Origin: Candidatus Yanofskybacteria bacterium RIFCSPHIGHO2_01_FULL_41_26
GTDB lineage: Bacteria; Patescibacteriota; Minisyncoccia; 2-02-FULL-40-12; GWA2-44-9
DNA: 64,000 nucleotides
Direction: 5' to 3'
Assembly (NCBI GenBank): GCA_001794055.1
Contig: MGJB01000015.1
Coordinates: 4,264-68,263 of the forward strand
In this document: in pieces, positions 4,757 through 56,451 of the stretch
Position numbering within the stretch: the first letter of the stretch is position 1
Layout: each line of letters begins with the position of its first letter
The notes under the pieces: model-generated
What the model saw: only the letters and a program-made list of their open reading frames with translations
Databases searched by the model: none
What the model was told of the DNA's origin: nothing
Translations under genes and position numbers: made by a program

Positions 4757-5389
4757 TTAAAATTTTTCTCCTTTATATATCCAAACTTTTACTCCTACTG
4801 TTCCGTATGTAGTGTGAGCAGTAGCTTTCGCATAATCAATATCTGCTCTCAATGTTTGTAGCGGTAAATTTCCTTCTTCTAAATGTTCCGATCGGGCTAT
4901 TTCGGCTCCATCTAAGCGTCCGCCGAGTAAAATCTTAGCGCCCTTAACCTGTTTGGAAGCTATAATTTTAGCCAAAGTCTGTTTCATTACCCTTCTGAAA
5001 GGAATCCTTTTTTCTATCTGGTCAACTATGGATTCGGCCATTATCATGGCGGATGCTTCCGGGTTTTTTACCTCTTGGATCTCAATCCTGATAGAAACTT
5101 TGTTTTTAAGAAGTTTCTGAATGGCATTTTTTAACTCCTCAACTCCGGTGCCTCCCCGCCCTATCAACAATCCTGGTCTGGCGGTAAAAATAATCACATT
5201 CAAGGCATCAGTGCCTCGCTCCAGTTCAACCCTATCTACACTAGTGCTCTTCAATTTTTTATTTAAAAAACCCCTGACAGCAACATCATCTTTCAGATAG
5301 GGCACGTATTTGCGTCCGCCAAACCAATGGGACGCCCAGTCCTTTTGAATTCCCGTCCTGAATGATATCGGTGATATTTTTTGTCCCAT
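4757..5389 (-). CDS. rpsC: 30S ribosomal protein S3
   Basis: 210 aa; KH domain N-term, GQKISPISFR start typical of S3. Confidence 0.95.
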   Translation of the reverse strand: MGQKISPISFRTGIQKDWASHWFGGRKYVPYLKDDVAVRGFLNKKLKSTSVDRVELERGTDALNVIIFTARPGLLIGRGGTGVEELKNAIQKLLKNKVSIRIEIQEVKNPEASAMIMAESIVDQIEKRIPFRRVMKQTLAKIIASKQVKGAKILLGGRLDGAEIARSEHLEEGNLPLQTLRADIDYAKATAHTTYGTVGVKVWIYKGEKF

Positions 5390-8185: not shown

Positions 8186-8818
8186 TTATTGTGATTGAAT
8201 TATTAATAATTGTCCTCTGTTTCCGGGAACCGCACCCTTAACCGCAAGCAATCCGTTTTTAGCATCAACTCTCACGATTTGTAATCCTCTTGTTGTTACT
8301 TTATCAGAACCCATTCGTCCGGCCATTCTCATTCCTTTCAATGTATGCTGGGGGAATCTTTGGCCGATTGATCCTCCGTGTCTTGCAACATGATGATGTC
8401 CGTGACTGTGAGGCATACCTGAAAAACCATGTCTTTTCATAACCCCCTGAAAACCTTTTCCTTTTGACATGCCCGTAATTTTAACTTTGTCTCCGATAGC
8501 AAAAATAGAAACATCAAGCTTGTCTCCCACCTTCGCTGAAACAGCTTCGGCGGGCAATCCAACTTTTCCGCCAATTCTGAATTCTTTCAGATGCTGGAAA
8601 TTGCCGAGATTTCTAAAGTGTCCTCTTTGGGGTTTATTTATATTTTTAATTTTCTTGGTTCCCGTTCCCACTTGAACCGCTTCGTAGCCGTCTTTATCTT
8701 TAGTTCTAACTTGAGTCACAACATTCGATTCAATTTCCACAACTGTAACCGGGACGACTTTTCCGTCTTCCTCAAAAACCTGCGTCATTCCCAATTTTTT
8801 ACCTAATATGAATTTCAT
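8186..8818 (-). CDS. rplC: 50S ribosomal protein L3
   Basis: 210 aa; L3 motifs (GMTQVFEEDGKVVPVTVVE, KGKGFQGVMKRHGF). Confidence 0.95.
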   Translation of the reverse strand: MKFILGKKLGMTQVFEEDGKVVPVTVVEIESNVVTQVRTKDKDGYEAVQVGTGTKKIKNINKPQRGHFRNLGNFQHLKEFRIGGKVGLPAEAVSAKVGDKLDVSIFAIGDKVKITGMSKGKGFQGVMKRHGFSGMPHSHGHHHVARHGGSIGQRFPQHTLKGMRMAGRMGSDKVTTRGLQIVRVDAKNGLLAVKGAVPGNRGQLLIIQSQ

Positions 8819-8869
8819 GATTGGTTAGCAAAGCGTTTGTCATTGAAAACATATCAGTCCTTAGACACG

Positions 8870-8960
8870 TAGAATTTCCCAGCGAGAAATTCTACTCGGC
8901 TTCGGCTCGCTCATCCCTCACTGCGTTCGGGATACCTTGCCCGCTCGCCTGCAGATGGTC
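8870..8960 (-). repeat. Family-A GC-rich two-hairpin repeat (copy 1, inverted orientation)
   Basis: Reverse complement reads gaccatctgcaggcgagcgggcaagg-[hairpin atccc/gggat]-gagcgagccgaagccgag-[hairpin tagaatttc/gaaattcta]; same architecture at 14087 and 33990. Confidence 0.75.
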
Positions 8961-9176
8961 TATAGACTGACATGTTTTCAATTCCATAAATTTCCAACAA
9001 TAAAACCCAGATTTAGCTGGGGCTCATGTGTCCTGCTAAATTTATTTAACTTATTCGATTGTGATTTTTCTTAAAACCACTTATTTCAATTAAGGTTTTA
9101 ACACGGCAAGTGAATTTTTACAAACCGGTCCCTTCGACAAGCTCAGGGTTAACCGGATAAATTCTACTGTCTATAT

Positions 9177-9256
9177 TACCACCGCTTTTAGCGGGGCCCC
9201 GCCCAAGGCGGTGGCTACCTTATTCCTCTCCACTGTTTCCAATGAAGAGAGTAAAG
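9177..9256. repeat. Family-B structured element (two short hairpins + truncated long hairpin), copy A
   Basis: accaccgcttttagcggggccccgcccaaggcggtggctaccttattcctctc...; paralogous to 9797-9896. Confidence 0.7.
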
Positions 9257-9268
9257 AAATAATTTTGA

Positions 9269-9472
9269 TTAAAGTACTTCCAGGAAACTCCTTGCTTCTT
9301 TTAAAATCGCTTGTGCTTTTTTTAACTTTTCTATTCCGCCTTCTTGAATTGGCTCCGTTCCCTTTGTAGCTCTTTGCAACGATTGCTCAACAACTTTAAC
9401 ATCTTCTCTTATCTGAGCGACTATGTTTTCTCCTAAATATTCTTCTCTTTCAATTTTTGGTTCTTGTTCCAT
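9269..9472 (-). CDS. Hypothetical small charged helical protein (67 aa)
   Basis: ORF only; E/K-rich, no recognised domain. Confidence 0.4.
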   Translation of the reverse strand: MEQEPKIEREEYLGENIVAQIREDVKVVEQSLQRATKGTEPIQEGGIEKLKKAQAILKEARSFLEVL

Positions 9473-9548
9473 AGTTTTTTATTTAATGTATTAACACTTT
9501 ATTTCTTTCCACCTAAATAATAAAAAGAAAGCAATAATGTTCTAATCC

Positions 9549-9782
9549 TTACAAATTTTTGGTTAATTCTTCAATCTTTTTAAGTCTGTTAACCATATGA
9601 GCTTTTATCTCTCTTACCTCCTCGGAATCCACATCTTTTCCCTCTTTAAGTGTTGCAATTAATAAATCGCTATCTTTCCCAAAACTGGCCACTTCCTGAT
9701 CTATAATCCCCCTGCTTGTTTCACAATTTCTGATTTGCTCTTGTTTATCTGATATTAAATCTTTTTTCTTTTCTCTGTTCAT
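9549..9782 (-). CDS. Hypothetical small charged protein (77 aa)
   Basis: ORF only; 13-nt tandem duplication of start region (atgaacagagaac x2) just upstream. Confidence 0.4.
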   Translation of the reverse strand: MNREKKKDLISDKQEQIRNCETSRGIIDQEVASFGKDSDLLIATLKEGKDVDSEEVREIKAHMVNRLKKIEELTKNL

Positions 9783-9796
9783 GTTCTCTGTTCATA

Positions 9797-9896
9797 TTAC
9801 CACCGTTTTTAACGGGGCCCCGCCAAAGGCGGTGGCTACCTTATTCTCTCGTCCTAGTGAGTTCTATCGAACTAAGGCGAGAAGTAAGGGGGTAAG
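9797..9896. repeat. Family-B structured element, copy B (two hairpins + full long hairpin)
   Basis: accaccgtttttaacggggccccgccaaaggcggtggctaccttattctctcgtcctagtgagttctatcgaactaaggcgagaagtaagggggtaag; hairpin 1 covaries vs copy A (ccgc/gcgg -> ccgt/acgg). Confidence 0.75.
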
Positions 9897-10190
9897 TTAT
9901 TTTTCTGTCTGTGTAAGTTTGGCTACCTCTCTAAGAGATTCGTTTGCAGAATATACCTGATCATTATCTATTATTTTAGCAACTTCTTTTAAGATGACAC
10001 CACTAAACTTTATAGCTCCCACATCCTCTTTTTTTATTCCCGATACTGCCTGGGATAGTTCCTTTAATTCCTTAACCCTTGCCTCAAGTTTGGCTATTGA
10101 TTCGGCTATTGCCTCGTTACCCTCTTTAAACTCTCTGGCATCTTTTTGTTCAACCGATTCTTGTACTATTGTTGGATTTTCTATACTCAT
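9897..10190 (-). CDS. Hypothetical small protein starting MSIENPT (97 aa), paralog of 10572..10826
   Basis: Shares N-terminal 7 aa, upstream leader and downstream hairpin with 10572..10826; middle diverged. Confidence 0.45.
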   Translation of the reverse strand: MSIENPTIVQESVEQKDAREFKEGNEAIAESIAKLEARVKELKELSQAVSGIKKEDVGAIKFSGVILKEVAKIIDNDQVYSANESLREVAKLTQTEK

Positions 10191-10202
10191 GTTTTTATAT
10201 AA

Positions 10203-10262
10203 TTTACATTTTTAACTCTATATCGACCCCTGATGGCAGATTCAAGTTCATAAGAGCATCAA
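10203..10262 (-). pseudogene. Duplicated fragment encoding the last 20 codons of S10 ([20 protein letters not shown])
   Basis: Translation identical to rpsJ C-terminus at 10847-10909 with 9 nucleotide differences, all synonymous. Confidence 0.8.
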
Positions 10263-10472
10263 TTATTTTGACGCTATATTTAACGCGTCCCAAACTTTCT
10301 TCATTTGGACTTTAAGCTGGTCAACTTCCGCGCGAACATCAAGCTTTTTCTCAACTTCGTCAAATCGTCTGGAAACCATGCCTGCTAAATTAGCAACCTC
10401 ATCTTTAAGGTCTTCTTTAGTGGCCAATTTGCCTAATTGTTTGTCAAAATATTCTTTGGTAAGGTCTGACAT
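10263..10472 (-). CDS. Hypothetical small coiled-coil protein (69 aa)
   Basis: ORF only; heptad-like K/E/L pattern; stop overlaps start of duplicated S10 tail. Confidence 0.4.
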   Translation of the reverse strand: MSDLTKEYFDKQLGKLATKEDLKDEVANLAGMVSRRFDEVEKKLDVRAEVDQLKVQMKKVWDALNIASK

Positions 10473-10512
10473 GGTGGTTAAATATTATCTTGTTTAAACT
10501 GTTTTGTCTATC

Positions 10513-10570
10513 ACCTTATTCTCTCGTCCTAGTGAGTTCTATCGAACTAAGGCGAGAAGTAAGGGGGTAA
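10513..10570. repeat. Family-B long hairpin only, copy C
   Basis: accttattctctcgtcctagtgagttctatcgaactaaggcgagaagtaagggggtaa identical to part of copy B. Confidence 0.75.
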
Positions 10571-10571
10571 T

Positions 10572-10826
10572 TTATTTTTCAACAACTTCACCCAATAAAT
10601 TCGATGACTCTTCTATTAAATTTGCTGCTTGGCTCATACTATCGTTAATGCGCCCCAACTTAACAAGATCCTGTTCTGATAAATTTTCAAAATCACCCTT
10701 ATCAAAGATTTCTTTTAGGCGACTTAAGCAGGCCCTATTGCGATCAATTCTCAAAACCATGTCTCCTCTAAGCCTTTCACTCAAGTTAGTTTCTACTATT
10801 TTTTGTGTTGGATTTTCTATGCTCAT
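10572..10826 (-). CDS. Hypothetical small protein starting MSIENPT (84 aa)
   Basis: See 9897..10190; leader upstream overlaps true rpsJ 3' end. Confidence 0.45.
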   Translation of the reverse strand: MSIENPTQKIVETNLSERLRGDMVLRIDRNRACLSRLKEIFDKGDFENLSEQDLVKLGRINDSMSQAANLIEESSNLLGEVVEK

Positions 10827-10846
10827 ATTTTTATTTTCTATTAAAT

Positions 10847-11173
10847 TTACATTTTTAATTCTATATCCACACCTGATGGTAAATTTAGATTCATCAATGC
10901 GTCTATAATCTTCGGTGTCGGTGAATCTATATCTATGATTCTCTTGTGGGTACGCATTTCAAACTGCTCTCTAGAATTCTTGTCAATGAATGCCGACCGA
11001 TTTACTGTATACTTGGCAATCTCTGTCGGCAATGGCACAGGTCCAATCGGATGTCCGCCATATCTTTCAATGGTTTCAACAATCTGGGCAGCGGACTTGT
11101 CTATGATCTTATTGTCATAAGCCCGGAGCTTAATCCGTATTCTCTGTTTTATTTCTGTCGTTTTTTTAGCCAT
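10847..11173 (-). CDS. rpsJ: 30S ribosomal protein S10
   Basis: S10 core ([22 protein letters not shown]...); start placed at [14 protein letters not shown] rather than upstream MFFSSK. Confidence 0.93.
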
Positions 11174-11194
11174 TTTACTTGAAAAGAACATTTT

Positions 11195-11221
11195 GAAGCC
11201 CCGACTACCTGTCGGGGCTTC
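11195..11221. other. Perfect 11-bp stem hairpin in tuf-rpsJ spacer
   Basis: gaagccccgac-tacct-gtcggggcttc read directly. Confidence 0.7.
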
Positions 11222-11224
11222 AGT

Positions 11225-12427
11225 TTATTTATTAATTTTGGTCACGGCTCCGGCGCCAACAGTCTTACCACCTTCTCTGATGGCAAATCTCTGCTTTTCT
11301 TCCATGGCGATAGGGGCAATCAATTGAACTTTCAAATTTGCAGTATCTCCCGGCATGACCATTTCAGTTCCTTCCGGCAATAAGACTTCTCCGGTAACAT
11401 CGGTGGTTCGGAAATAGAATTGAGGTTTGTAACCCTTGAAGAATGGGGTATGTCTGCCACCTTCTTCTTTTGTTAAAACATATATTTCTGCCTCAAAATC
11501 GGTATGCGGGGTAATCGTACCCGGCTTGGCAAGCACTTGGCCTCTTTCTATGTCTTCTTTCTTGGTACCTCTCAAAAGTATTCCGGCATTGTCTCCGGCC
11601 AAACCTTCGTCTAATTGCTTATTAAACATTTCGATACCGGTGACAACAGTCTTCGCTGTCGGTTTAATTCCAACTATTTCAATTTCTTCGTTTAATTTAA
11701 CTTTCCCTCTTTCAATTCTTCCGGTTACAACAGTGCCTCTTCCTTCAATTGAAAAGATGTCTTCAATAGGCATAAGGAAGGGTTTATCGGTATCTCGGAC
11801 CGGATCCGGAAAGAAAGTATCCATTGCATTCATCAATTCCTTGATCGGCTTGGCATATTGATCATCTTTTGATTTAGATTCAAGGGCTTTCAATCCAGAA
11901 CCTCTGATAATCGGGGTTTTATCTCCGGGGAACTGATATTTATTCAAGAGCTCTCTGATTTCGGCTTCAACCAAATCAACCATTTCCGGATCATCAACCA
12001 TATCCACCTTGTTGAGGAATACGATTATATTAGGAACGCCAACCTGTCTGGCAAGCAAAATGTGCTCTCTTGTTTGAGGCATCGGGCCATCAGTGGCAGC
12101 GACAACCAATACAGCTCCATCCATCTGGGCAGCACCCGTGATCATATTTTTAATGTAATCAGCGTGGCCAGGAGCATCAACATGAGCGTAGTGGCGCTTG
12201 GGTGTCTCGTACTCGGAGTGGTGTAAGGCAATTGTAATACCTCTGGCTTTTTCTTCAGGAGCATTATCAATCTGATCTACTCCTTCCTCTCGGGCAGAAT
12301 AACCCTCGTCCTTCATTAAATTTAATACATGCAAAATACCCGCCGTTAGCGTAGTTTTACCGTGGTCAACGTGACCGATTGTGCCGACATTCAAGTGCAG
12401 CTTGTTTCTTTCAAATTTGCCTGCCAT
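11225..12427 (-). CDS. tuf: Elongation factor Tu
   Basis: 400 aa; [22 protein letters not shown] GTPase motifs. Confidence 0.98.
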
Positions 12428-13906: not shown

Positions 13907-14086
13907 CTAACACCTCCAGCTCTGGGCCTGTTTCATCCCAGTGGTGGTTGTGGCTGCGAACGGCCATTCCGCCCGGAATTGGGCGAGACTTTCCATCCGG
14001 AGCAGTTAACGAACGGACTAAATCATACTACATTAAAACAAAAAAATCAAGATTTAACTCAAGAGCGAGGGCTTTGTGCAATTAGA

Positions 14087-14175
14087 GACCATCTGCAGGC
14101 GAACGAGCATGGTGTCTCGCAAAGCGAGACGAGTGAACCGAAGCCGAGAAAAATCGCCCGCTGGGGCGATTTTTC
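14087..14175 (+). repeat. Family-A GC-rich two-hairpin repeat (copy 2); second hairpin is a bidirectional terminator downstream of fusA
   Basis: gaccatctgcaggcgaacgagcatgg-[gtctcgc/gcgagac]-gagtgaaccgaagccgag-[aatcgccc gctg gggcgatt]+ttttt. Confidence 0.75.
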
Positions 14176-14204
14176 GTGTCGAGAATTGCATAAAGCCCGA
14201 GCGA

Positions 14205-33604: not shown

Positions 33605-34024
33605 CTATTTTACGATTTTCGAACCAAGAGGTTTACCACCCAAAAGATGGATATGAAGATGAGAGACGAGTTTACCGCCATGCTCACCTTCGTTGATAAT
33701 GAGTCGGTAACCTTTTTCGTGAACGCCTAATTGTTTTGCAACTTTTTCGGCGACAAGAAGCGCTTGACCTAAAAGTGCCGCATCCTTTTGGTTGAAATCA
33801 TGAAGAGCTTCATAATGCTTCTTGGGAACAACAAGCACGTGCACCGGGGCTTGAGGATTAATATCCCTTATCACCCAAAACTCCTCGTCCTTATAAACAA
33901 CGTCGGCCTTCAACTCTCCTTTTATGATTTTACAGAAGACATCCTGTATCATAAGTTTTCGGAGAAATCGTAGAGATAGGGGTTTTGAAACCATCTGCAG
34001 GCGAGCGGGCAAGGTGGTCGCCAC
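33605..34024 (-). CDS. HIT family hydrolase
   Basis: HLHIHLLGG histidine triad. Confidence 0.88.
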   Translation of the reverse strand: MATTLPARLQMVSKPLSLRFLRKLMIQDVFCKIIKGELKADVVYKDEEFWVIRDINPQAPVHVLVVPKKHYEALHDFNQKDAALLGQALLVAEKVAKQLGVHEKGYRLIINEGEHGGKLVSHLHIHLLGGKPLGSKIVK

Positions 34025-34075
34025 AGGCGACCGGGCGAGCCGAAGCCGAACTGGAATTCTCGCCGGGAATTCCAG
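33990..34075 (+). repeat. Family-A GC-rich two-hairpin repeat (copy 3)
   Basis: accatctgcaggcgagcgggcaagg-[ggtcgcc aca ggcgacc]-gggcgagccgaagccgaa-[ctggaattc tcgccgg gaattccag]. Confidence 0.75.
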
Positions 34076-34096
34076 TGTGTTGAAAAACTCTTATCT

Positions 34097-35383
34097 CTAC
34101 GACTTCAAACGTTTCTTGACTTCATCCACTATCTTTTCCAACGGAATTGTCTCCTGAATTCCCGTATCCATCTCTCTCAAAATTATTGTGTCGTCCAATG
34201 CCTCCTTTTGTCCGAATATCAAGGCAAATTTAACTTCCAGCCTATTGGCAATCCTCAATTGCGACTTGATGCTGTCGCGACCTAATGAAGATTTGGTGTC
34301 AACGCCAGCTTTCCTGAAAGATTCAAAAAGAAGAATGCTTTTTCTTTTGGCCGCTTCTCCAAGTTGAACTAGAAAAACTTTAGGCTTGGCTTTTATCTCC
34401 GGAACGGAAATGTTTTTCTCCTTAAGCTCAAGAATAATTCTTTCTATACCCGATGCCCATCCTGATGATGGAGTTTTGGAACCGCCTAAAAGTTCAATTA
34501 ATTTGTCATAACGTCCTCCAGCAACTAAAGTTGATTGAGCGCCAATATTTTCCTCCGGCAGAATTTCAAATACGGTTCTTGTATAATAGTCCAACCCTCT
34601 GACCAAATGTGGATTCAATATATACGGCACCTTGGCTTCATCTAAGAACTCCAGAACATGCTTGAAATGCGCATGGCATTCTTCGTCCAAAAAATCAACA
34701 AATTGAGGCGTCTCTTTGGAAAGTTCTTTACATGCCTCCTCTTTGCAATCAAGTAATCGCAAAATATTTTCTTTGAATCTTACCTTGCAGTTGGCGCAAG
34801 ACTTTTTGAGGCGATTTTTGTAGTAATCTTTAAGGGTTTTCAAATATGCCGGACGGCAACTCTGGTCGCCAATGCTGTTTATGTGGACATTATAATTCTT
34901 CAATCCCAAACTTTCTATAAATTTATAGGCCAAGAAAATCAACTCTGCATCCACTGCTTCGGAACTGTCGCCAACAGTCTCAACTCCCAACTGAAAAAAC
35001 TGCCTGTATCTGCCTTTTTGGGGCTGGTCATGTCTGAACATTGGACTGACATAATAAAGCTTCACGGGATGAGGCTTCACATTCATGCCGTTTTCAAGAT
35101 ACGCCCTCATAACAGCCGCTGTTCCTTCGGGCCTTAAAGTCAAACTATCTCCTCCTTTGGTTCTTAACGTATACATTTCTTTCTGAACAATATCTGTTGA
35201 CTCCCCCACTGCGCGAAAAAATAAATCTGTTGATTCCAAAACTGGTGTCTCAATTTTTTCAAAACCATAAAACTCCAGCAGGTTCTCTGCCTTTTTCAAA
35301 ACATAGCGCCAATATTTCTGGTCTTCCGGAAGTATATCCTGCATTCCTTTCGGCGCCTGGATTGTTTTTTCTTTTTTAGACAT
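34097..35383 (-). CDS. hisS: Histidyl-tRNA synthetase
   Basis: 428 aa class II aaRS with HisRS motifs. Confidence 0.93.
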   Translation of the reverse strand: MSKKEKTIQAPKGMQDILPEDQKYWRYVLKKAENLLEFYGFEKIETPVLESTDLFFRAVGESTDIVQKEMYTLRTKGGDSLTLRPEGTAAVMRAYLENGMNVKPHPVKLYYVSPMFRHDQPQKGRYRQFFQLGVETVGDSSEAVDAELIFLAYKFIESLGLKNYNVHINSIGDQSCRPAYLKTLKDYYKNRLKKSCANCKVRFKENILRLLDCKEEACKELSKETPQFVDFLDEECHAHFKHVLEFLDEAKVPYILNPHLVRGLDYYTRTVFEILPEENIGAQSTLVAGGRYDKLIELLGGSKTPSSGWASGIERIILELKEKNISVPEIKAKPKVFLVQLGEAAKRKSILLFESFRKAGVDTKSSLGRDSIKSQLRIANRLEVKFALIFGQKEALDDTIILREMDTGIQETIPLEKIVDEVKKRLKS

Positions 35384-38008: not shown

Positions 38009-38902
38009 CTACCAACTTCCAGAAGCGCCTCCGCCGCCAGAACTGCCACCGCCAAAACCCCCAAACCCACTGCCACCTGATCTTGAACTGTCCCCTGATC
38101 TTGGTCCGCCTCGACCCCCAATCCACCAAGGCAACGTCTGACCCGTTTTTTTTGCAACGGTATATTTTCTAGAAACAAGGCGATCAAGCCAAAGGCCTAA
38201 AGGTATTAAAATCAAGGCCGAAATGAATCCGGAAATTAAAGAAAAAATAAGACTGACAATAATAGCTATTGCCCCACCGACGATTCCCCCGCCCCACCAG
38301 GATTTGGAACGAGCTAAAATGCTTCCTGTCCACACAGAAAATATCCATAAAACCCAAAATAAAAATAAGATTGAATCGGCATCGAATCCTCTGCTGTTGT
38401 TTGGACTTGTGTTGGGTTTAAATTCTCCTTTTGTTATTGAAATGATGTTGTCCACTCCACTGTCAATGCCGCCGTAGTAATCTCCCTTTTGAAAAGCAGG
38501 CTTTAAGATATTTTGTATTATCCAAAAACTCTGGGCATCGGTCAGAGATCCCTCCAAACCATAACCGACCTCGATCCGCATCCGCCTATCATCACGGGCG
38601 ATAAGAAGCAAAATGCCGTTGTTTTTTTTATTTTTTCCTATTCCCCAATCCTCGAAAAGTTTTACGGCAAAATTTTCAACGGTGTCTCCGCCGAGATCGG
38701 CAATGGTGACCACTGCCAGTTCGTTGCTGGTATCTTTTTCAAAATTACTAATTTTAATTTCTAAAGCCTGTCTCTGTTCTACTGTAAGCATCCCCGCAAA
38801 ATCATTTACAAAACCGGTTTTAATACCAGGGCTCTGGTAAGCAAAAACAAGCAAGGGAACTAAAACAAAGAGACCGCTTAGCATCTTGGGGAGTCTAAGC
38901 AT
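38009..38902 (-). CDS. TPM-domain (TLP18.3/YgcG-like) protein with Gly-rich C-terminal tail
   Basis: FVNDFAGMLT...ELAVVTIADLGGDT...NNGILLLIARDDRRMRIEVGYGLEG. Confidence 0.8.
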   Translation of the reverse strand: MLRLPKMLSGLFVLVPLLVFAYQSPGIKTGFVNDFAGMLTVEQRQALEIKISNFEKDTSNELAVVTIADLGGDTVENFAVKLFEDWGIGKNKKNNGILLLIARDDRRMRIEVGYGLEGSLTDAQSFWIIQNILKPAFQKGDYYGGIDSGVDNIISITKGEFKPNTSPNNSRGFDADSILFLFWVLWIFSVWTGSILARSKSWWGGGIVGGAIAIIVSLIFSLISGFISALILIPLGLWLDRLVSRKYTVAKKTGQTLPWWIGGRGGPRSGDSSRSGGSGFGGFGGGSSGGGGASGSW

Positions 38903-39576: not shown

Positions 39577-41022
39577 TTACCAGCTTCCAGAAGCGCCTCC
39601 GCCACCGAAACTGCCTCCTCCAAAACCGCCAAAACTGCTTGAACCTGATGAGCTGGAAGATGACCAGTTTGAAGAATTTGAGTAGTTTGAACTACTACTA
39701 TAAGAATTTCGCTTCGGCCTGGGATGTCGTTTTTCTTCGGCATCTTCTTTGTCCGACTTGGCCTTCGATTTGGCGCTTGCTACAAGCGCCATTGCCTCGG
39801 CAAACAGAGCGACCACTAGAAGCCAGTTGACCGACTGGTTATCGGCCGCACTTCTAGCCTTCCGATATTTGTCTTCGGCTTGATCAAGATACTTGCGGCT
39901 TCTGTCTTTCACATCTTTATGTTCCAATTCTTTCCGAGCTGCCTTGATGGAATCGGGAACCGAATCAATTAATTTCGAGCTTGTGGCCTTAGCGTCATTT
40001 ACTTCCTGAATTTTATTTGTAATTGCTTCAAGGAGTCCCGAGGACGTCGAGATCGCCGTGAGTAGTGTCACGATTTTGTTGTAAATCGTTTCCGAGTTCA
40101 TCCGATCGGAACTTCGATGCTCTTCCTGCAGTAATGCCAGTTTCTTTTTTTGACTTTCAAGATCTGCAGGCAACTTATTCAGGCGATTTTCAAGATTTGA
40201 CCAAACTTCTTTTGGATTGGTCTTTTGAAGTTGCTCTAGTTTTTCACGAGCTTTTGGAATTTTTTGTTCAGCTTCTTTGATATAATTTTCGCAATTCACG
40301 AGTGAGCGGATATTTTCATCATAAATATTTTTTAGATATTTTCGCCGAATCTCCGCTTTATAGATAAAAATTCCAATTACTATTAGCACAATAATTGCCA
40401 GTCCCGTTGGAATAGCAATACTAAGAAATGCCGCCACTTGTTCGTCCTGAAGCTTCTGTTCGGCGGCCGCCTTCTCTGCGGCAATTTTTCTTTCTTCAAG
40501 GCGTGCCTCAAAGGGCTTAATGCCTAGATTGGTCAGAATTGCATCAATACCAGCCATAATACCCTTGGTCAATTTGGCGTTCTTGGCTGCTGTAGGCAAA
40601 TCGACCGATTCCTTAAAATAAGGAATTATTATGTCTCTGATAATCCGTCCGCTTTGGACATCGGTTAGATCTGATTCCATTCCATATCCGACTTCAATCC
40701 TCATTTTTCTTTCATTAGGAGCAACCAGTAACACAACACCATTATCCTTCTTTTTATCTCCAACGCCCCACGACTGGGCCAGTCCGAGAGTGTAATCCTC
40801 CACGGTCTCACCTTCCAAAGACAGAACTGTTACTACAGCCACTTCAATAGATGTTTTTTCGCGATAATCCCGAAGTCGTGTTTCGGTCTGCTGTTTGGTC
40901 TCGGCTGACATTATATTCGCAAAGTCGTTCACATATCCGACTGGCTTAGGATAGTTCGGAACAGCAAATGCAATTGCGGCCACAATAACAAAACAAACCA
41001 TCAGAAAGCTTTTCTTAGCCAT
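39577..41022 (-). CDS. TPM-domain protein with long coiled-coil and Gly-rich C-terminal tail
   Basis: N-terminal TPM domain (GYVNDFANIMS...NGVVLLVAPNERKMRIEVGYGME); C-terminus nearly identical to 38009..38902 tail. Confidence 0.8.
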   Translation of the reverse strand: MAKKSFLMVCFVIVAAIAFAVPNYPKPVGYVNDFANIMSAETKQQTETRLRDYREKTSIEVAVVTVLSLEGETVEDYTLGLAQSWGVGDKKKDNGVVLLVAPNERKMRIEVGYGMESDLTDVQSGRIIRDIIIPYFKESVDLPTAAKNAKLTKGIMAGIDAILTNLGIKPFEARLEERKIAAEKAAAEQKLQDEQVAAFLSIAIPTGLAIIVLIVIGIFIYKAEIRRKYLKNIYDENIRSLVNCENYIKEAEQKIPKAREKLEQLQKTNPKEVWSNLENRLNKLPADLESQKKKLALLQEEHRSSDRMNSETIYNKIVTLLTAISTSSGLLEAITNKIQEVNDAKATSSKLIDSVPDSIKAARKELEHKDVKDRSRKYLDQAEDKYRKARSAADNQSVNWLLVVALFAEAMALVASAKSKAKSDKEDAEEKRHPRPKRNSYSSSSNYSNSSNWSSSSSSGSSSFGGFGGGSFGGGGASGSW

Positions 41023-50484: not shown

Positions 50485-50560
50485 TGGAGCCGCCTCCCAG
50501 ATTTGCACTGGGGACCTTCTCGTTACGAGTGAGATGCTCTACTGGCTGAGCTAAGGCGGC
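50485..50560 (-). tRNA. tRNA-Thr (anticodon CGU)
   Basis: Manual fold: acceptor GCCGCCU/AGGCGGC, D arm GCUC/GAGC, anticodon loop CUCGUAA, T arm; one A-C mismatch in anticodon stem; T-loop UGCAAAU atypical. Confidence 0.7.
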
Positions 50561-50623
50561 ATTGATTATATTTAGGTAATTATATCAAAAAATTCTTTTT
50601 TTACAACGCATTTTTTGATATTT

Positions 50624-50660
50624 TGAGCGGGATAGTGGATGACCTTAGAACCTATTGGCA
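50624..50660. repeat. ~36-bp direct repeat, copy 1 (hairpin with conserved loop ttagaacctattggca)
   Basis: gagcgggatagtggatgaccttagaacctattggca vs copy at 50986. Confidence 0.7.
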
Positions 50661-50985: not shown

Positions 50986-51021
50986 TCAAGTCTTGGAGCG
51001 GGATAGTGAATGACGTTAGAA
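50986..51021. repeat. ~36-bp direct repeat, copy 2
   Basis: gagcgggatagtgaatgacgttagaacctattggca; stem covaries (ggatg/catcc vs atgac/gtcat). Confidence 0.7.
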
Positions 51022-51057
51022 CCTATTGGCAGTCATCTAATGATTTGTTTTATATAC

Positions 51058-55017: not shown

Positions 55018-55371
55018 TCAGAAAAAGTTGTTCCAGATTGCTTTGACTATATAAAGTCCAATAAGCAGAGTCGACATCATAAGAAGATAAAGTCCCAAAG
55101 ACAAAACACCTCTTTTATCATCTGCCAGCGTTGCCCCTTGTAATTTTCCAACAATGATAAGGGCTAGACTGACGATTGCCACAATGTATAAAGTAAGACC
55201 TACCTCTGGTGAATACATGTTGCTGTTGCAACTGGAAAAGGGCTTTATGCCTCTAGGAACCATAAAACCCGCTACCAGGTGCAACCTTTCGGTCGCAATA
55301 TGTGGGTTTCCCCACATAACGCAGTGCATGCCCTGATAACGGGATTTATATGCACTGCGATTTGATGCCAT
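55018..55371 (-). CDS. Hypothetical membrane protein (117 aa) flanked by ~30-nt direct repeats
   Basis: Repeats attataaccaa...tctgggcatcagaaaa at 54996-55026 and 55419-55472. Confidence 0.45.
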   Translation of the reverse strand: MASNRSAYKSRYQGMHCVMWGNPHIATERLHLVAGFMVPRGIKPFSSCNSNMYSPEVGLTLYIVAIVSLALIIVGKLQGATLADDKRGVLSLGLYLLMMSTLLIGLYIVKAIWNNFF

Positions 55372-56451
55372 GCCCCACAGTATCTTGTCGGGTTGTAGGC
55401 GGTTAAATTGTTAAATACATTATAACCAAATAGGGTAATTTTTCAATGAGTGGAATCTGGGCATCAGAAAATAAAATACTTGAACTTATTGCCCAAAAAT
55501 GTTATAATGTAAGAGTAGGCTTCTGGGAATACTCCCAAGGGGTCTGTGAGAACTCAAAAACGATAGTAGGTTGCACTAGCCCATCAGAGTTTCATTGGTT
55601 AAGCACTGATTGCTAGTATTATTTCTCCCATTGGGTTAGGCAAAAATCCAATGAAACTCCCCAGTGAGAGGAATAATGAAAGTAATCAGTGTTTTTATTT
55701 GGTTCAGCAAGGGTTCTGATGAAGATAAATTAATATTCCAAAATAGAGCAATCGAGCAGGGCAACAGTTCAACTACTGACCCTGGAAACTAAGGAGCATA
55801 AGACCTTACTACAATCCTTAGGGCGTGTTTTATAGGGTTTTGAGCAGAGAGGACTACAGATGAGAAACTCTCAAAGGCGGTATCGGGCACCTATCGCCAA
55901 GACTTGAAATAAAAGGCGGCAAAATGGAATGCTGGTTAGCCAGTAATTCAAATTAGCAAACTTATATAGTTACTAAAGCGAATCTGCAGTAGGCACACAC
56001 GACATTAAAGAAGGAGTGATGTGTGGGGCAGGATAAGGAGGAAACTACAAAGCATCTGATTATATTATTTAATTATTTTAATTCTGCATGACGACAGTAT
56101 AGGATTGGCATCTGGAATGTGGGCTTTTTTAAGAGCTGGACATGCCCGAGTCGCTTCGCAGGCTCCAGCCCTGAAGCGAAGCCCTACGAGGGCAGTCAGC
56201 GAGGACGTGTCCGAGATGAGACAGCCCGCCACATGTAGAGGGCGGCTTTTATATCACGACTCAACCTTATGCTGACGACATACTACCATTTGGAGTTTAA
56301 CTACTAGAACAAAACCTATCATAGGTTGCGAAATGTATGCCCAATATGGCTACTACTATAAACCTCGTATAAACAAAGAAAATAAGCGCATTTTTACTGA
56401 GTTTCTTCCGTAATATTGGGTTGTCATCTATTTGAATAGTTTCTTGGTGAG

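Follow-up and report, generated by a model that had tools for sequence, protein, structure and literature searches.

The window examined in the current study is a 64,000 nt stretch of Candidatus Yanofskybacteria bacterium RIFCSPHIGHO2_01_FULL_41_26 (contig MGJB01000015.1), and the features of interest are repeated, structured sequences lying between rpsJ and rplC, the genes for ribosomal proteins S10 and L3. Every gene around the repeats is carried by the minus strand, and in the direction of transcription tuf is followed by a terminator-like hairpin, rpsJ, five small open reading frames (ORFs o84, o69, o97, o77 and o67), about 450 nt of non-coding sequence, and rplC (Table 1). The S10 and L3 genes almost abut in most bacteria; here the distance between them is 2 kb. 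An earlier, sequence-only reading of this DNA had described the repeats as a single "family-B" element, in which two short hairpins are followed by a long one. The repeats were confirmed and all of the described sequences are present, but the family-B element consists of two independent modules that happen to abut: a unit of two hairpins, exactly 36 nt in length (the 36-mer), and a long hairpin.

The separation is evident in the window itself. Three composite copies had been counted, but copy C has the long hairpin alone, and the two-hairpin units number only two: a 41-nt degenerate pattern matches nt 9179–9214 and 9800–9835 only (shuffles expect 0), and a covariance model of the 36-mer finds two copies in the 64 kb and none at long hairpin C. 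Besides copy C, about nine relatives have the long hairpin without the two-hairpin unit, while the latter stands solo in dozens of unrelated contexts. The adjacency reported earlier holds, but the order is the opposite one on the transcribed minus strand, where the long hairpin is followed by UAG and then by the two-hairpin unit. Placement at the 3' ends of minus-strand ORFs had been recognised correctly (the long hairpins follow the stops of o97, o84 and o67), as had the structured nature of both parts, which have fold z-scores of -3.5 to -5 and covariation in both families. Neither module matches Rfam 15, whether at the gathering threshold over the window or at E ≤ 10 over nt 8700–11300.

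The 36-mer reads CCACCGC-N5-GCGGGGCCCCGC-N5-GCGGTGG, on a skeleton of CCACCG-N7-CGGGGCCCCG-N7-CGGTGG. Each strand can adopt a T-shaped fold with a 3-bp outer helix (CCA/UGG) and two 5-bp, GC-rich triloop hairpins joined by a GGCC linker, and the covariance model scores the element alike on both strands. Covariation was computed on 55 distinct 36-nt copies against 500 shuffles. For the model with two 5-bp hairpins and the 3-bp outer helix, pairing extends to 99% of cells and covariation is scored at 0.168, compared with 0.045 in shuffles, none of which (0/500) reaches 0.168. The two stem pairs left free by the search pattern covary, the first being CG in 32 copies, UA in 12, AU in 5 and GC in 1, and the second CG in 22, UA in 18, AU in 10 and UG in 4. 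A single long-stem model scores below its own shuffles, and this fold, although favoured by energy, was rejected; it is the pair of 5-bp hairpins that covariation supports. Copies A and B differ at three positions, a C-G to T-A double change and one loop base, so that the compensatory change noticed earlier is real (C-G to U-A in one stem); the U-A of copy B is the sole U-A at that stem position among the 55 copies. The 6-nt loop previously assigned to hairpin 1 of copy B is a miscount for CCGT-TTTTA-ACGG, with a 5-nt loop, and across the whole family this hairpin is a 5-bp stem with a triloop.

One pattern scan of species-representative genomes returned at least 119 stretches, and the family counts given here rest on the matches listed. 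At least 85 copies lie in low-GC loci, mostly labelled as Patescibacteria, in either orientation and both within genes and in intergenic DNA; among the low-GC matches listed, 63 of 85 are exactly 36 nt long and 68 of 85 have hairpin-forming spacers on both sides. Matches in high-GC genomes (38 among those listed) were set aside as chance, having random spacer lengths and, in all but 1 of 38, no hairpin-forming spacers on both sides. A viral origin was rejected likewise, the sole IMG/VR match being a high-GC chance match. The lineages represented are Yanofsky-, Vogel-, Lipton-, Nomura-, Moran-, Magasanik- and Uhrbacteria, Saccharibacteria and Paceibacterota. A single Vogelbacteria genome has at least 11 copies, and bin E14.167 likewise at least 11. 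Decayed copies with mutated centres also exist. No description of this 36-nt repeat in Patescibacteria was found in the literature, the coverage of which was incomplete, so that this absence is not proof.

The site of copy A is filled in one relative and empty in about nine others. Seven metagenomic S10-L3 spacers were recovered by way of a 24-nt conserved block, and four more by way of o69 homologs. The window and loci L114/L125 (Yanofskybacteria RIFCSPHIGHO2_01_FULL_43_32) read AATAAGGTAG, the 36 nt, and TAATA, while L123, L124, L127, L135, L136, L137 and L138 read AATAAGGTAG followed directly by TAAT. Loci L121/L122 and L126 are likewise empty at this site, and the covariance model detects no 36-mer in L121–L124, L126 or L127. 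The long hairpin is present in every relative examined. At the spacer site that they share, copy A and the L114 copy agree at 36 of 36 positions, against an average identity of 75% in the spacer around them. Long hairpin C is followed by GGTG and then immediately by ATAGACA, resembling the unoccupied site of L126. The filled and empty spacer sites indicate that insertion is precise and without target-site duplication. No such duplication was found in three filled/empty comparisons (S10-L3 spacer, guaA, and tRNA D-loop), each of which is an exact 36-nt insertion, and no target motif is common to the 14-nt flanks of 83 copies.

Other insertions occur close by. A different double-hairpin insertion of about 43 nt (CCCCGACG...CGTCGGGG AGCCGAC...GTCGGCT) is present in the same leader of L121/L122, L126 and L138, at a point 10 nt or so downstream from where the 36-mer inserts, and is absent from L124; it suggests a wider class of paired-hairpin insertion elements. 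A further motif type, (GT)CATCCTGAGCGAAGTCGAAGGAT / GTCATTGCGAG...CAATC, recurs in the leader before rplC in L121 and L126, and in L021, L058, L067, L072, L080, L083 and L086. In several loci the 36-mer is inserted at the centre of a motif of this type, and these are therefore nested repeats.

Among the matches listed, at least about 23 copies lie inside long ORFs, with all three reading frames in use, and all but one are 36 or 39 nt long (the exception, 37 nt, is at the extreme N-terminus of its ORF). The restriction to multiples of 3 indicates that these copies are translated and not spliced out. In guaA of one Nomurabacteria genome, the 12 residues ATASGGAPQDAV are found between a K and a D, and are missing from a GuaA homolog of 79% identity and from 17 others. 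In glyA of another genome, the insert falls where solved serine hydroxymethyltransferase structures have a gap, and GuaA gave the same result against solved structures. Other host genes, judged by sequence, include probable mnmA, der and iscS, a Mur ligase gene and one xerC-like gene. The same repeat is therefore present at many unrelated loci, including in-frame sites in conserved genes that are empty in close relatives, which is the behaviour of Rickettsia palindromic elements (RPEs). Elsewhere in Patescibacteria, GuaA carries other in-frame insertions at different positions (INPHTFFFEVF.KRSKSIKKE.VGV in four proteins and EAPDVGRLEASRRPTSGAGAN in one; homologs P0037, P0093, P0095, P0100 and P0116), which may be further families of translated repeats.

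At least 23 loci have a duplicated 5' fragment of tRNA-Ser or tRNA-Tyr that is split by the 36-mer between GGCAGA and GTGGTC, the junction corresponding to D-loop position 14/15. The interrupted piece is only the first 27 or so nt of the tRNA, and an intact tRNA lies 28–270 nt downstream. An ORF of about 80 aa with a GIY-YIG nuclease domain (PF01541, E = 2.4e-14) follows in 12 of the 23 listed tRNA-fragment loci, in which case the intact tRNA starts about 266 nt after the 36-mer; shorter versions are without this ORF. The tRNA-linked copies are 34–37 nt long, form tandem arrays in L075, L049 and L061, and include both mirror orientations of the same 36-mer. The association of the 36-mer with GIY-YIG genes is robust, and is seen from both sides: 12 of the 17 GIY-YIG ORFs in the listed loci adjoin a 36-mer core, and five of six GIY-YIG homologs that were sampled without regard to the palindrome are closely preceded by a tRNA fragment with a 36-mer in it, intact or decayed, and closely followed by tRNA-Ser or tRNA-Tyr. 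A tRNA intron, of the bulge-helix-bulge type or group I, was rejected, since no more than a 5' fragment is interrupted, the intact tRNA lies downstream, and in-gene copies are multiples of 3; a paper on Patescibacteria tRNA introns mentions no such element. In L026 (nt 5096–5144), a second, decayed palindrome (CCACCGCCTATGGCGGGGTGCCGCCAGGGGCGGCA) was seen about 20 nt beyond the D-loop 36-mer in a tRNA-Tyr 5' fragment.

Table 1. Modules of the S10-L3 spacer and surrounding genes (positions in the window)
Feature	Position (nt)	Strand	Basis or remark
36-nt element copy A	9179..9214	-	pattern and covariance-model matches; sense strand CCACCGCCTTGGGCGGGGCCCCGCTAAAAGCGGTGG
36-nt element copy B	9800..9835	-	pattern and covariance-model matches
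long hairpin allele A (CUUUACUCUCUUCAUUGGAAACAGUGGAGAGGAAUAAGG)	9218..9256	-	3' of o67 stop (9269); fold, alignment with relatives
long hairpin copy B	9839..9892	-	3' of o97 stop (9897); fold, covariation
long hairpin copy C	10514..10567	-	3' of o84 stop (10572); fold; 99% identical to B
conserved L3 leader downstream of copy A	9006..9176	-	alignment with L114 and L121–L127; terminator scan
displaced duplicate of rpsJ 3' end (19 codons)	10205..10269	-	with 10170–10198 repeats 10806–10912
five small ORFs between rpsJ and L3 leader	9269..10826	-	ORF list, Pfam, pairwise comparison
o84	10572–10826	-	small ORF
o69	10263–10472	-	small ORF
o97	9897–10190	-	small ORF
o77	9549–9782	-	small ORF
o67	9269–9472	-	small ORF
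tuf	12427–11225	-	upstream neighbour of rpsJ
rpsJ (ribosomal protein S10)	10847..11191	-	upstream boundary; Pfam PF00338, E = 9.6e-32
rplC (ribosomal protein L3)	8186..8818	-	downstream boundary; ORF call and Pfam Ribosomal_L3 on identical gene in L128

The second module, the long hairpin, comes in every relative examined directly after a stop codon, either that of rpsJ or that of the small ORF nearest the leader, and is followed by UAGUAAU, the whole motif reading UAA-AUUAC...hairpin...UAGUAAU. Across thirteen sequences there are 16 pairs, of which 9 have compensatory changes, with pairing in 97.1% of cells and covariation scored at 0.502, compared with 0.222 in shuffles (0/500). In L137 the inner stem has been replaced entirely. 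The apex is short in most relatives, while copies B and C, and L121, have a 10-nt apical extension. Copy A had been taken for an internally deleted form of B and C, but is a different allele with compensatory stem changes, its nearest relative being in L138. Many near-invariant U·G pairs occur on the ORF strand that would be A·C mismatches on the opposite strand. Allele A folds at -15.9 kcal/mol in the sense direction compared with -6.4 in antisense, and over the set the stability of the sense strand is uniform (-14 to -19 kcal/mol) while that of the antisense strand ranges from -6 to -25. Energy alone leaves the strand undecided, but the U·G pairs point to the mRNA strand, and together with the uniform sense stability they indicate a role at the RNA level. 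The long hairpin is a lineage-conserved stem-loop on the mRNA strand, separate from the 36-mer, and this module alone may have a 3'-end or processing role. As for intrinsic terminators, a scan of the minus strand over nt 8700–11400 lists only 9021–9006 and 11222–11194, and there is no T-run after either the 36-mer or the long hairpin.

Downstream of copy A, the untranslated leader of rplC is conserved, with an invariant block at nt 9075–9098. At its end (nt 9006–9021, minus strand) is a terminator-like stem, CCCAGCUAAAUCUGGG, with a U-run, and an upstream AUUUAGC (nt 9030–9045) could pair with the loop side, GCUAAAU, of this stem. A stem of the same type stands directly before the rplC AUG in L123, L124 and L127, and could be an attenuator. 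Blocks of conserved sequence, the covarying hairpin and a terminator-like stem ahead of rplC are all present, and the region is a candidate ribosomal-protein operon leader or attenuator. Another structured element of about 140 nt was observed in three copies in the window (nt 8842–8982, minus strand; about 14060–14200 and about 33960–34110, plus strand). It has invariant motifs (ACCATCTGCAGGCGAGCGGGCAAGGT, GAGCCGAAGCCGAG and CGTGTC) and no Rfam match, and its three stems (an outer stem and two inner hairpins) are wholly different between copies yet complementary. One of the three stands between the terminator of the leader and the start of rplC, and a second comes just after fusA; this is probably the "family A" of the sequence-only reading.

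The array of small ORFs upstream of the leader appears to bear traces of recombination. The last 65 or so nt of rpsJ and the start of the following ORF are repeated (nt 10806–10912 and 10170–10269), and it is this duplication that leaves o84 and o97 with only their first seven codons, MSIENPT, in common. Their upstream regions are shared up to that point (10806–10826 vs 10170–10190) and their bodies are unrelated. The same pattern was observed for o67 (nt 9449–9472) and a 62-aa ORF of L127, which have the upstream region and MEQEPKIE in common and unrelated bodies, and it looks as though the recombination breakpoints lie just inside ORF starts. A tandem duplication of paralogous genes was ruled out, the five small ORFs being unrelated except for the seven codons of o84 and o97. 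The long-hairpin blocks at 9838–9905 and 10513–10580 are 99% identical. Block 9167–9225 is 92% identical to 9788–9846, and copy B of the 36-mer lies in a tract of 59–69 nt (9784–9850) duplicated from 9162–9230. The array appears best explained by unequal recombination between divergent alleles, for which three patches of homology would have served: the end of rpsJ together with the beginning of the ORF, the hairpin, and the 36-mer-containing block. Copy B would then have arrived through a local duplicated or converted tract, and the long hairpin would have been duplicated as small-ORF cassettes accumulated downstream of rpsJ. At least 10 contigs assembled independently carry the S10-o84-o69-o97-o77-o67-L3 array at 99.9% identity, so that an assembly artefact is ruled out. 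A variant contig, L132, diverges within o97 into an unrelated gene; being short and possibly chimeric, it was excluded from use.

Pfam gave nothing significant for the small ORFs. The product of o69 matches, at 100% identity, a hypothetical protein from Candidatus Yanofskybacteria bacterium RIFCSPLOWO2_01_FULL, and its family (MSDLTKEY...LAGMMSRRFDELEKKLDVRAEVDQLK) has 67 homologs and no Pfam match. The ORFs between rpsJ and the hairpin differ among relatives, and only the o69 family is widely kept there, recurring between rpsJ and rplC in several Paceibacteria lineages (L126, L127, L135–L138); it may represent a small S10-operon protein that has so far gone unrecognised. Locus L127 has an additional 75-aa ORF (MPNPRTPENF...) between tuf and rpsJ, indicating that the tuf-rpsJ junction takes up small ORFs likewise.

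Taken as a whole, the locus is quite probably explained by a 36-nt selfish insertion element abutting a conserved mRNA hairpin. The 36-mer in the window would be a passenger, copy A sitting between the long hairpin and the remainder of the S10-L3 leader, and its folded single strand would be what the propagating machinery recognises. Solo 36-mers may be derivatives without autonomy that depend for movement or copying in trans on the linked GIY-YIG nuclease, which is the best lead to how the element moves; the route could be break-induced gene conversion between homologous loci together with rare new insertions. At the RNA level, the long hairpin would protect a 3' end or serve in processing, and would separate the message of S10 and the cassettes from the L3 leader, and the latter would end in a terminator-like attenuator. 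A bolder proposal is that the 36-mer and the GIY-YIG gene form a previously undescribed mobile system, active across Patescibacteria, in which master copies home into the D-loop-coding position of tRNA-Ser/Tyr and regenerate the tRNA via its first 27 or so nt, while the nuclease recognises the folded double hairpin and disperses solo 36-mers in trans, including into essential genes. This is a tentative idea, more doubtful than probable. Equally tentative is the suggestion, by analogy, that such a system would be a GIY-YIG counterpart of two partnerships, that of repetitive extragenic palindromic (REP) sequences with REP-associated tyrosine transposases (RAYTs) and that of IS200 with palindrome-associated transposable elements (PATEs).

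Several points weigh against this explanation. No transposase or recombinase was identified, the evidence for mobility consisting of presence/absence comparisons. The 64-kb window has no GIY-YIG gene by tblastn, and only two copies of the 36-mer. In an isolated strand, energy favours a single imperfect long stem (-19 to -25 kcal/mol) over the T shape (-11 to -14), and the complementarity of the stems could be maintained mechanically, for example by template switching within the palindrome, and not by selection. Short direct repeats of variable length are mildly enriched at the flanks, a poor fit with an absent target-site duplication. The identical 36-mer in the window and L114 could be ancestral and precisely lost elsewhere, and not transferred. 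Several of the source metagenome-assembled genomes bear non-Patescibacteria labels, and labels were taken as given. For the long hairpin, the antisense strand folds more stably in seven of ten copies, and its role is entirely inferred.

Among the alternatives, the one that survives best, though unlikely, treats the long hairpin as an attC-like recombination site and the S10-L3 spacer as an integron-like array of [small ORF + hairpin] cassettes. The variable ORFs between rpsJ and the hairpin fit such an array, as do the three [ORF(s) + hairpin] units in the window and the two in each of L126 and L136, the conserved base and variable apex of the hairpin, as in attC, and the sharing of only the first 7–8 codons by o84/o97 and by o67 and the L127 ORF. 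However, there are no RYYYAAC/GTTRRRY core sites, the sequence reading CCUUACUUCUCG...CGAGAGAAUAAGG instead, and no integrase in the neighbourhood (tuf, rpsJ, rplC and rplD), and on these grounds an integron attC was rejected. Part of rpsJ is included in the duplications, a sign of unequal homologous recombination. The U·G pairs speak for a structure formed by the mRNA, and loci without any cassette (L114 and L123) still have the hairpin.

It is improbable that the composite is a single RNA signal at the 3' end of small genes, either a terminator or an RNase processing or stability element, as the sequence-only reading had it. Every copy does follow a stop codon on the transcribed strand, both parts fold well, and the long hairpin is conserved with sense-strand U·G pairs; nevertheless, the parts occur apart, neither is followed by a U-tract, and the 36-mer scores equally on both strands and is found elsewhere within essential coding sequences and tRNA gene fragments. 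For the two-hairpin unit in particular, the lack of a T-run, the empty site in close relatives, and the in-frame copies in guaA and glyA speak against terminator or processing function.

There is as little likelihood that the 36-mer is a site of benefit to the host, for instance one bound by a dimeric regulator or by a nucleoid protein, or one that signals DNA uptake. The strong conservation of the skeleton over very distant lineages and the perfect match of the L114 copy to copy A would suit this, but half-sites for a protein would fix bases, whereas the stem pairs covary. DNA-uptake signals number hundreds to thousands per genome, and the 36-mer is low in copy number and patchy, with 1 to about 11 copies in the stretches sampled per genome among the matches listed. 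Decayed copies exist, close relatives lack the element at orthologous sites with nothing in its place, and no benefit of 12 additional residues in GuaA or GlyA is evident. Weakest of all is the proposal that the 36-mer is not mobile but a stereotyped repair scar or filler at cuts made by the GIY-YIG or another nuclease: the precise insertion without target-site duplication or target consensus, the exact location at one junction (D-loop 14/15) of a structure resembling break repair from a donor allele, and the tandem arrays would accord with it, but a scar would not retain a 26-nt skeleton with covarying stems over phylum-level distances, and the decayed copies show ordinary descent with mutation.

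Some further features of the window lie away from these modules. The window has a G+C content of 40% and contains four tRNAs and one LOOT RNA (RF03000; nt 55281–55401, minus strand; 66.5 bits vs a gathering score of 46.4). A 39-nt direct repeat, TTTGAGCGGGATAGTGGATGACCTTAGAACCTATTGGCA, is 92% identical between 50622–50660 and 50993–51031, 371 nt apart and beside tRNA-Thr (50485–50560). A 72-nt repeat of 82% identity (38010–38081 and 39578–39649, 1.57 kb apart) is G/C-rich with a proline- or glycine-coding-like composition, and probably represents paralogous low-complexity gene segments.

Although tiny and streamlined, the genomes of Patescibacteria would put up with a selfish palindrome of 36 bases, not only in the leaders of ribosomal operons and at tRNA loci but also within the coding frames of such enzymes as GMP synthase and serine hydroxymethyltransferase. 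Its recognition explains odd 12-residue protein insertions (T-A-x-G-G-A-P-x-x-A-V, and those of the other two frames), prevents mis-annotation as a terminator or small RNA, and provides a presence/absence marker of recombination between unculturable populations. Its link with a GIY-YIG gene and a split tRNA offers a concrete, testable hypothesis for the mobility of very short palindromes, a question open for RPEs and most REP-like repeats. The S10-L3 junction of Paceibacteria, with its long hairpin, leader, and variable small-ORF cassettes, is a candidate cis-regulatory RNA and gene-turnover hot spot within a core ribosomal operon.

Among known systems, the arrangement around the long hairpin recalls the S10 operon leader of Escherichia coli (L4-mediated attenuation), in that the hairpin opens a conserved untranslated leader of 300–400 nt before rplC-rplD, which ends in a terminator-like stem and U-run just before the start codon. 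Here, however, the leader is downstream and not upstream of rpsJ, has no Rfam match, and is a candidate by sequence only. For the 36-mer, the ends of IS200/IS605 elements and their non-autonomous PATEs are alike in depending on subterminal hairpins, in inserting with no target-site duplication, and in a presumed movement as single-stranded DNA. They differ in inserting 3' of a fixed tetra- or pentanucleotide and in requiring TnpA, which was not seen here, and a derivation as a PATE was rejected because the 14-nt flanks of the 83 copies have no conserved target tetranucleotide. Membership of the miniature inverted-repeat transposable elements was rejected as well, a fixed-length target-site duplication being lacking in the three filled/empty comparisons.

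The inverted terminal repeat of adeno-associated virus is 125–145 nt long, terminal, and a replication origin nicked by an HUH Rep protein. By comparison, the 36-mer is internal, has an outer helix of 3 bp only, and has nothing that ties it to replication. The likeness is confined to structure: a pair of small GC-rich palindromes, their triloops TTT and AAA, stand side by side inside an outer stem, and two mirror orientations (flip/flop) occur at the same locus. The comparison was suggested by PMC6049929. Phage T4 SegB is a free-standing GIY-YIG homing endonuclease encoded in a tRNA gene cluster (PMC2330249). It shares with the present case a small GIY-YIG gene beside tRNA genes and an expected mode of spread, in which alleles lacking the nuclease are cut and then repaired from the donor. 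With SegB there is neither an associated palindrome nor a duplicated tRNA fragment, whereas here the 36-mer splits the first 27 or so nt of the tRNA at the D-loop, and the nuclease is known from sequence alone.

The closest parallels are with short selfish palindromes. The REP sequences and bacterial interspersed mosaic elements (BIMEs) of Proteobacteria, with their Y1/HUH-type RAYTs ("REPtrons"), are likewise short (20–40 nt), GC-rich, imperfect palindromes, multicopy, in both orientations and often in paired hairpins, with a dedicated nuclease gene flanked by element copies and no target-site duplication. REPs are, however, extragenic, species-specific, marked by a GTAG-type tetranucleotide, and linked to HUH enzymes, whereas the 36-mer occurs also in-frame in genes, is conserved across a superphylum, and is linked to GIY-YIG beside a tRNA 5' fragment. 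It was not classed with REP/BIME, since at least about 23 copies are inside long ORFs (those in guaA and glyA verified) and the recurrent linked gene is GIY-YIG and not RAYT, for which no genome-wide search was made. The RPEs, said to have been described by Ogata et al. in 2000, are reportedly selfish palindromic repeats found in-frame in essential protein genes and in RNA genes. Both they and the 36-mer are tolerated as additional peptide segments in the reduced genomes of host-dependent bacteria. The likeness is one of behaviour, with no sequence comparison behind it, and sequence similarity is not expected: RPEs are 100–150 nt long, confined to Rickettsia, and have no linked nuclease known, whereas the 36-mer is a double hairpin of 12 codons found in Patescibacteria. 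By analogy, the 36-mer can be regarded as behaving like the selfish palindromes of REP or Rickettsia-RPE type, from which it is set apart by its size, its range, its in-frame occurrence, and its partnership with a GIY-YIG gene and a tRNA.

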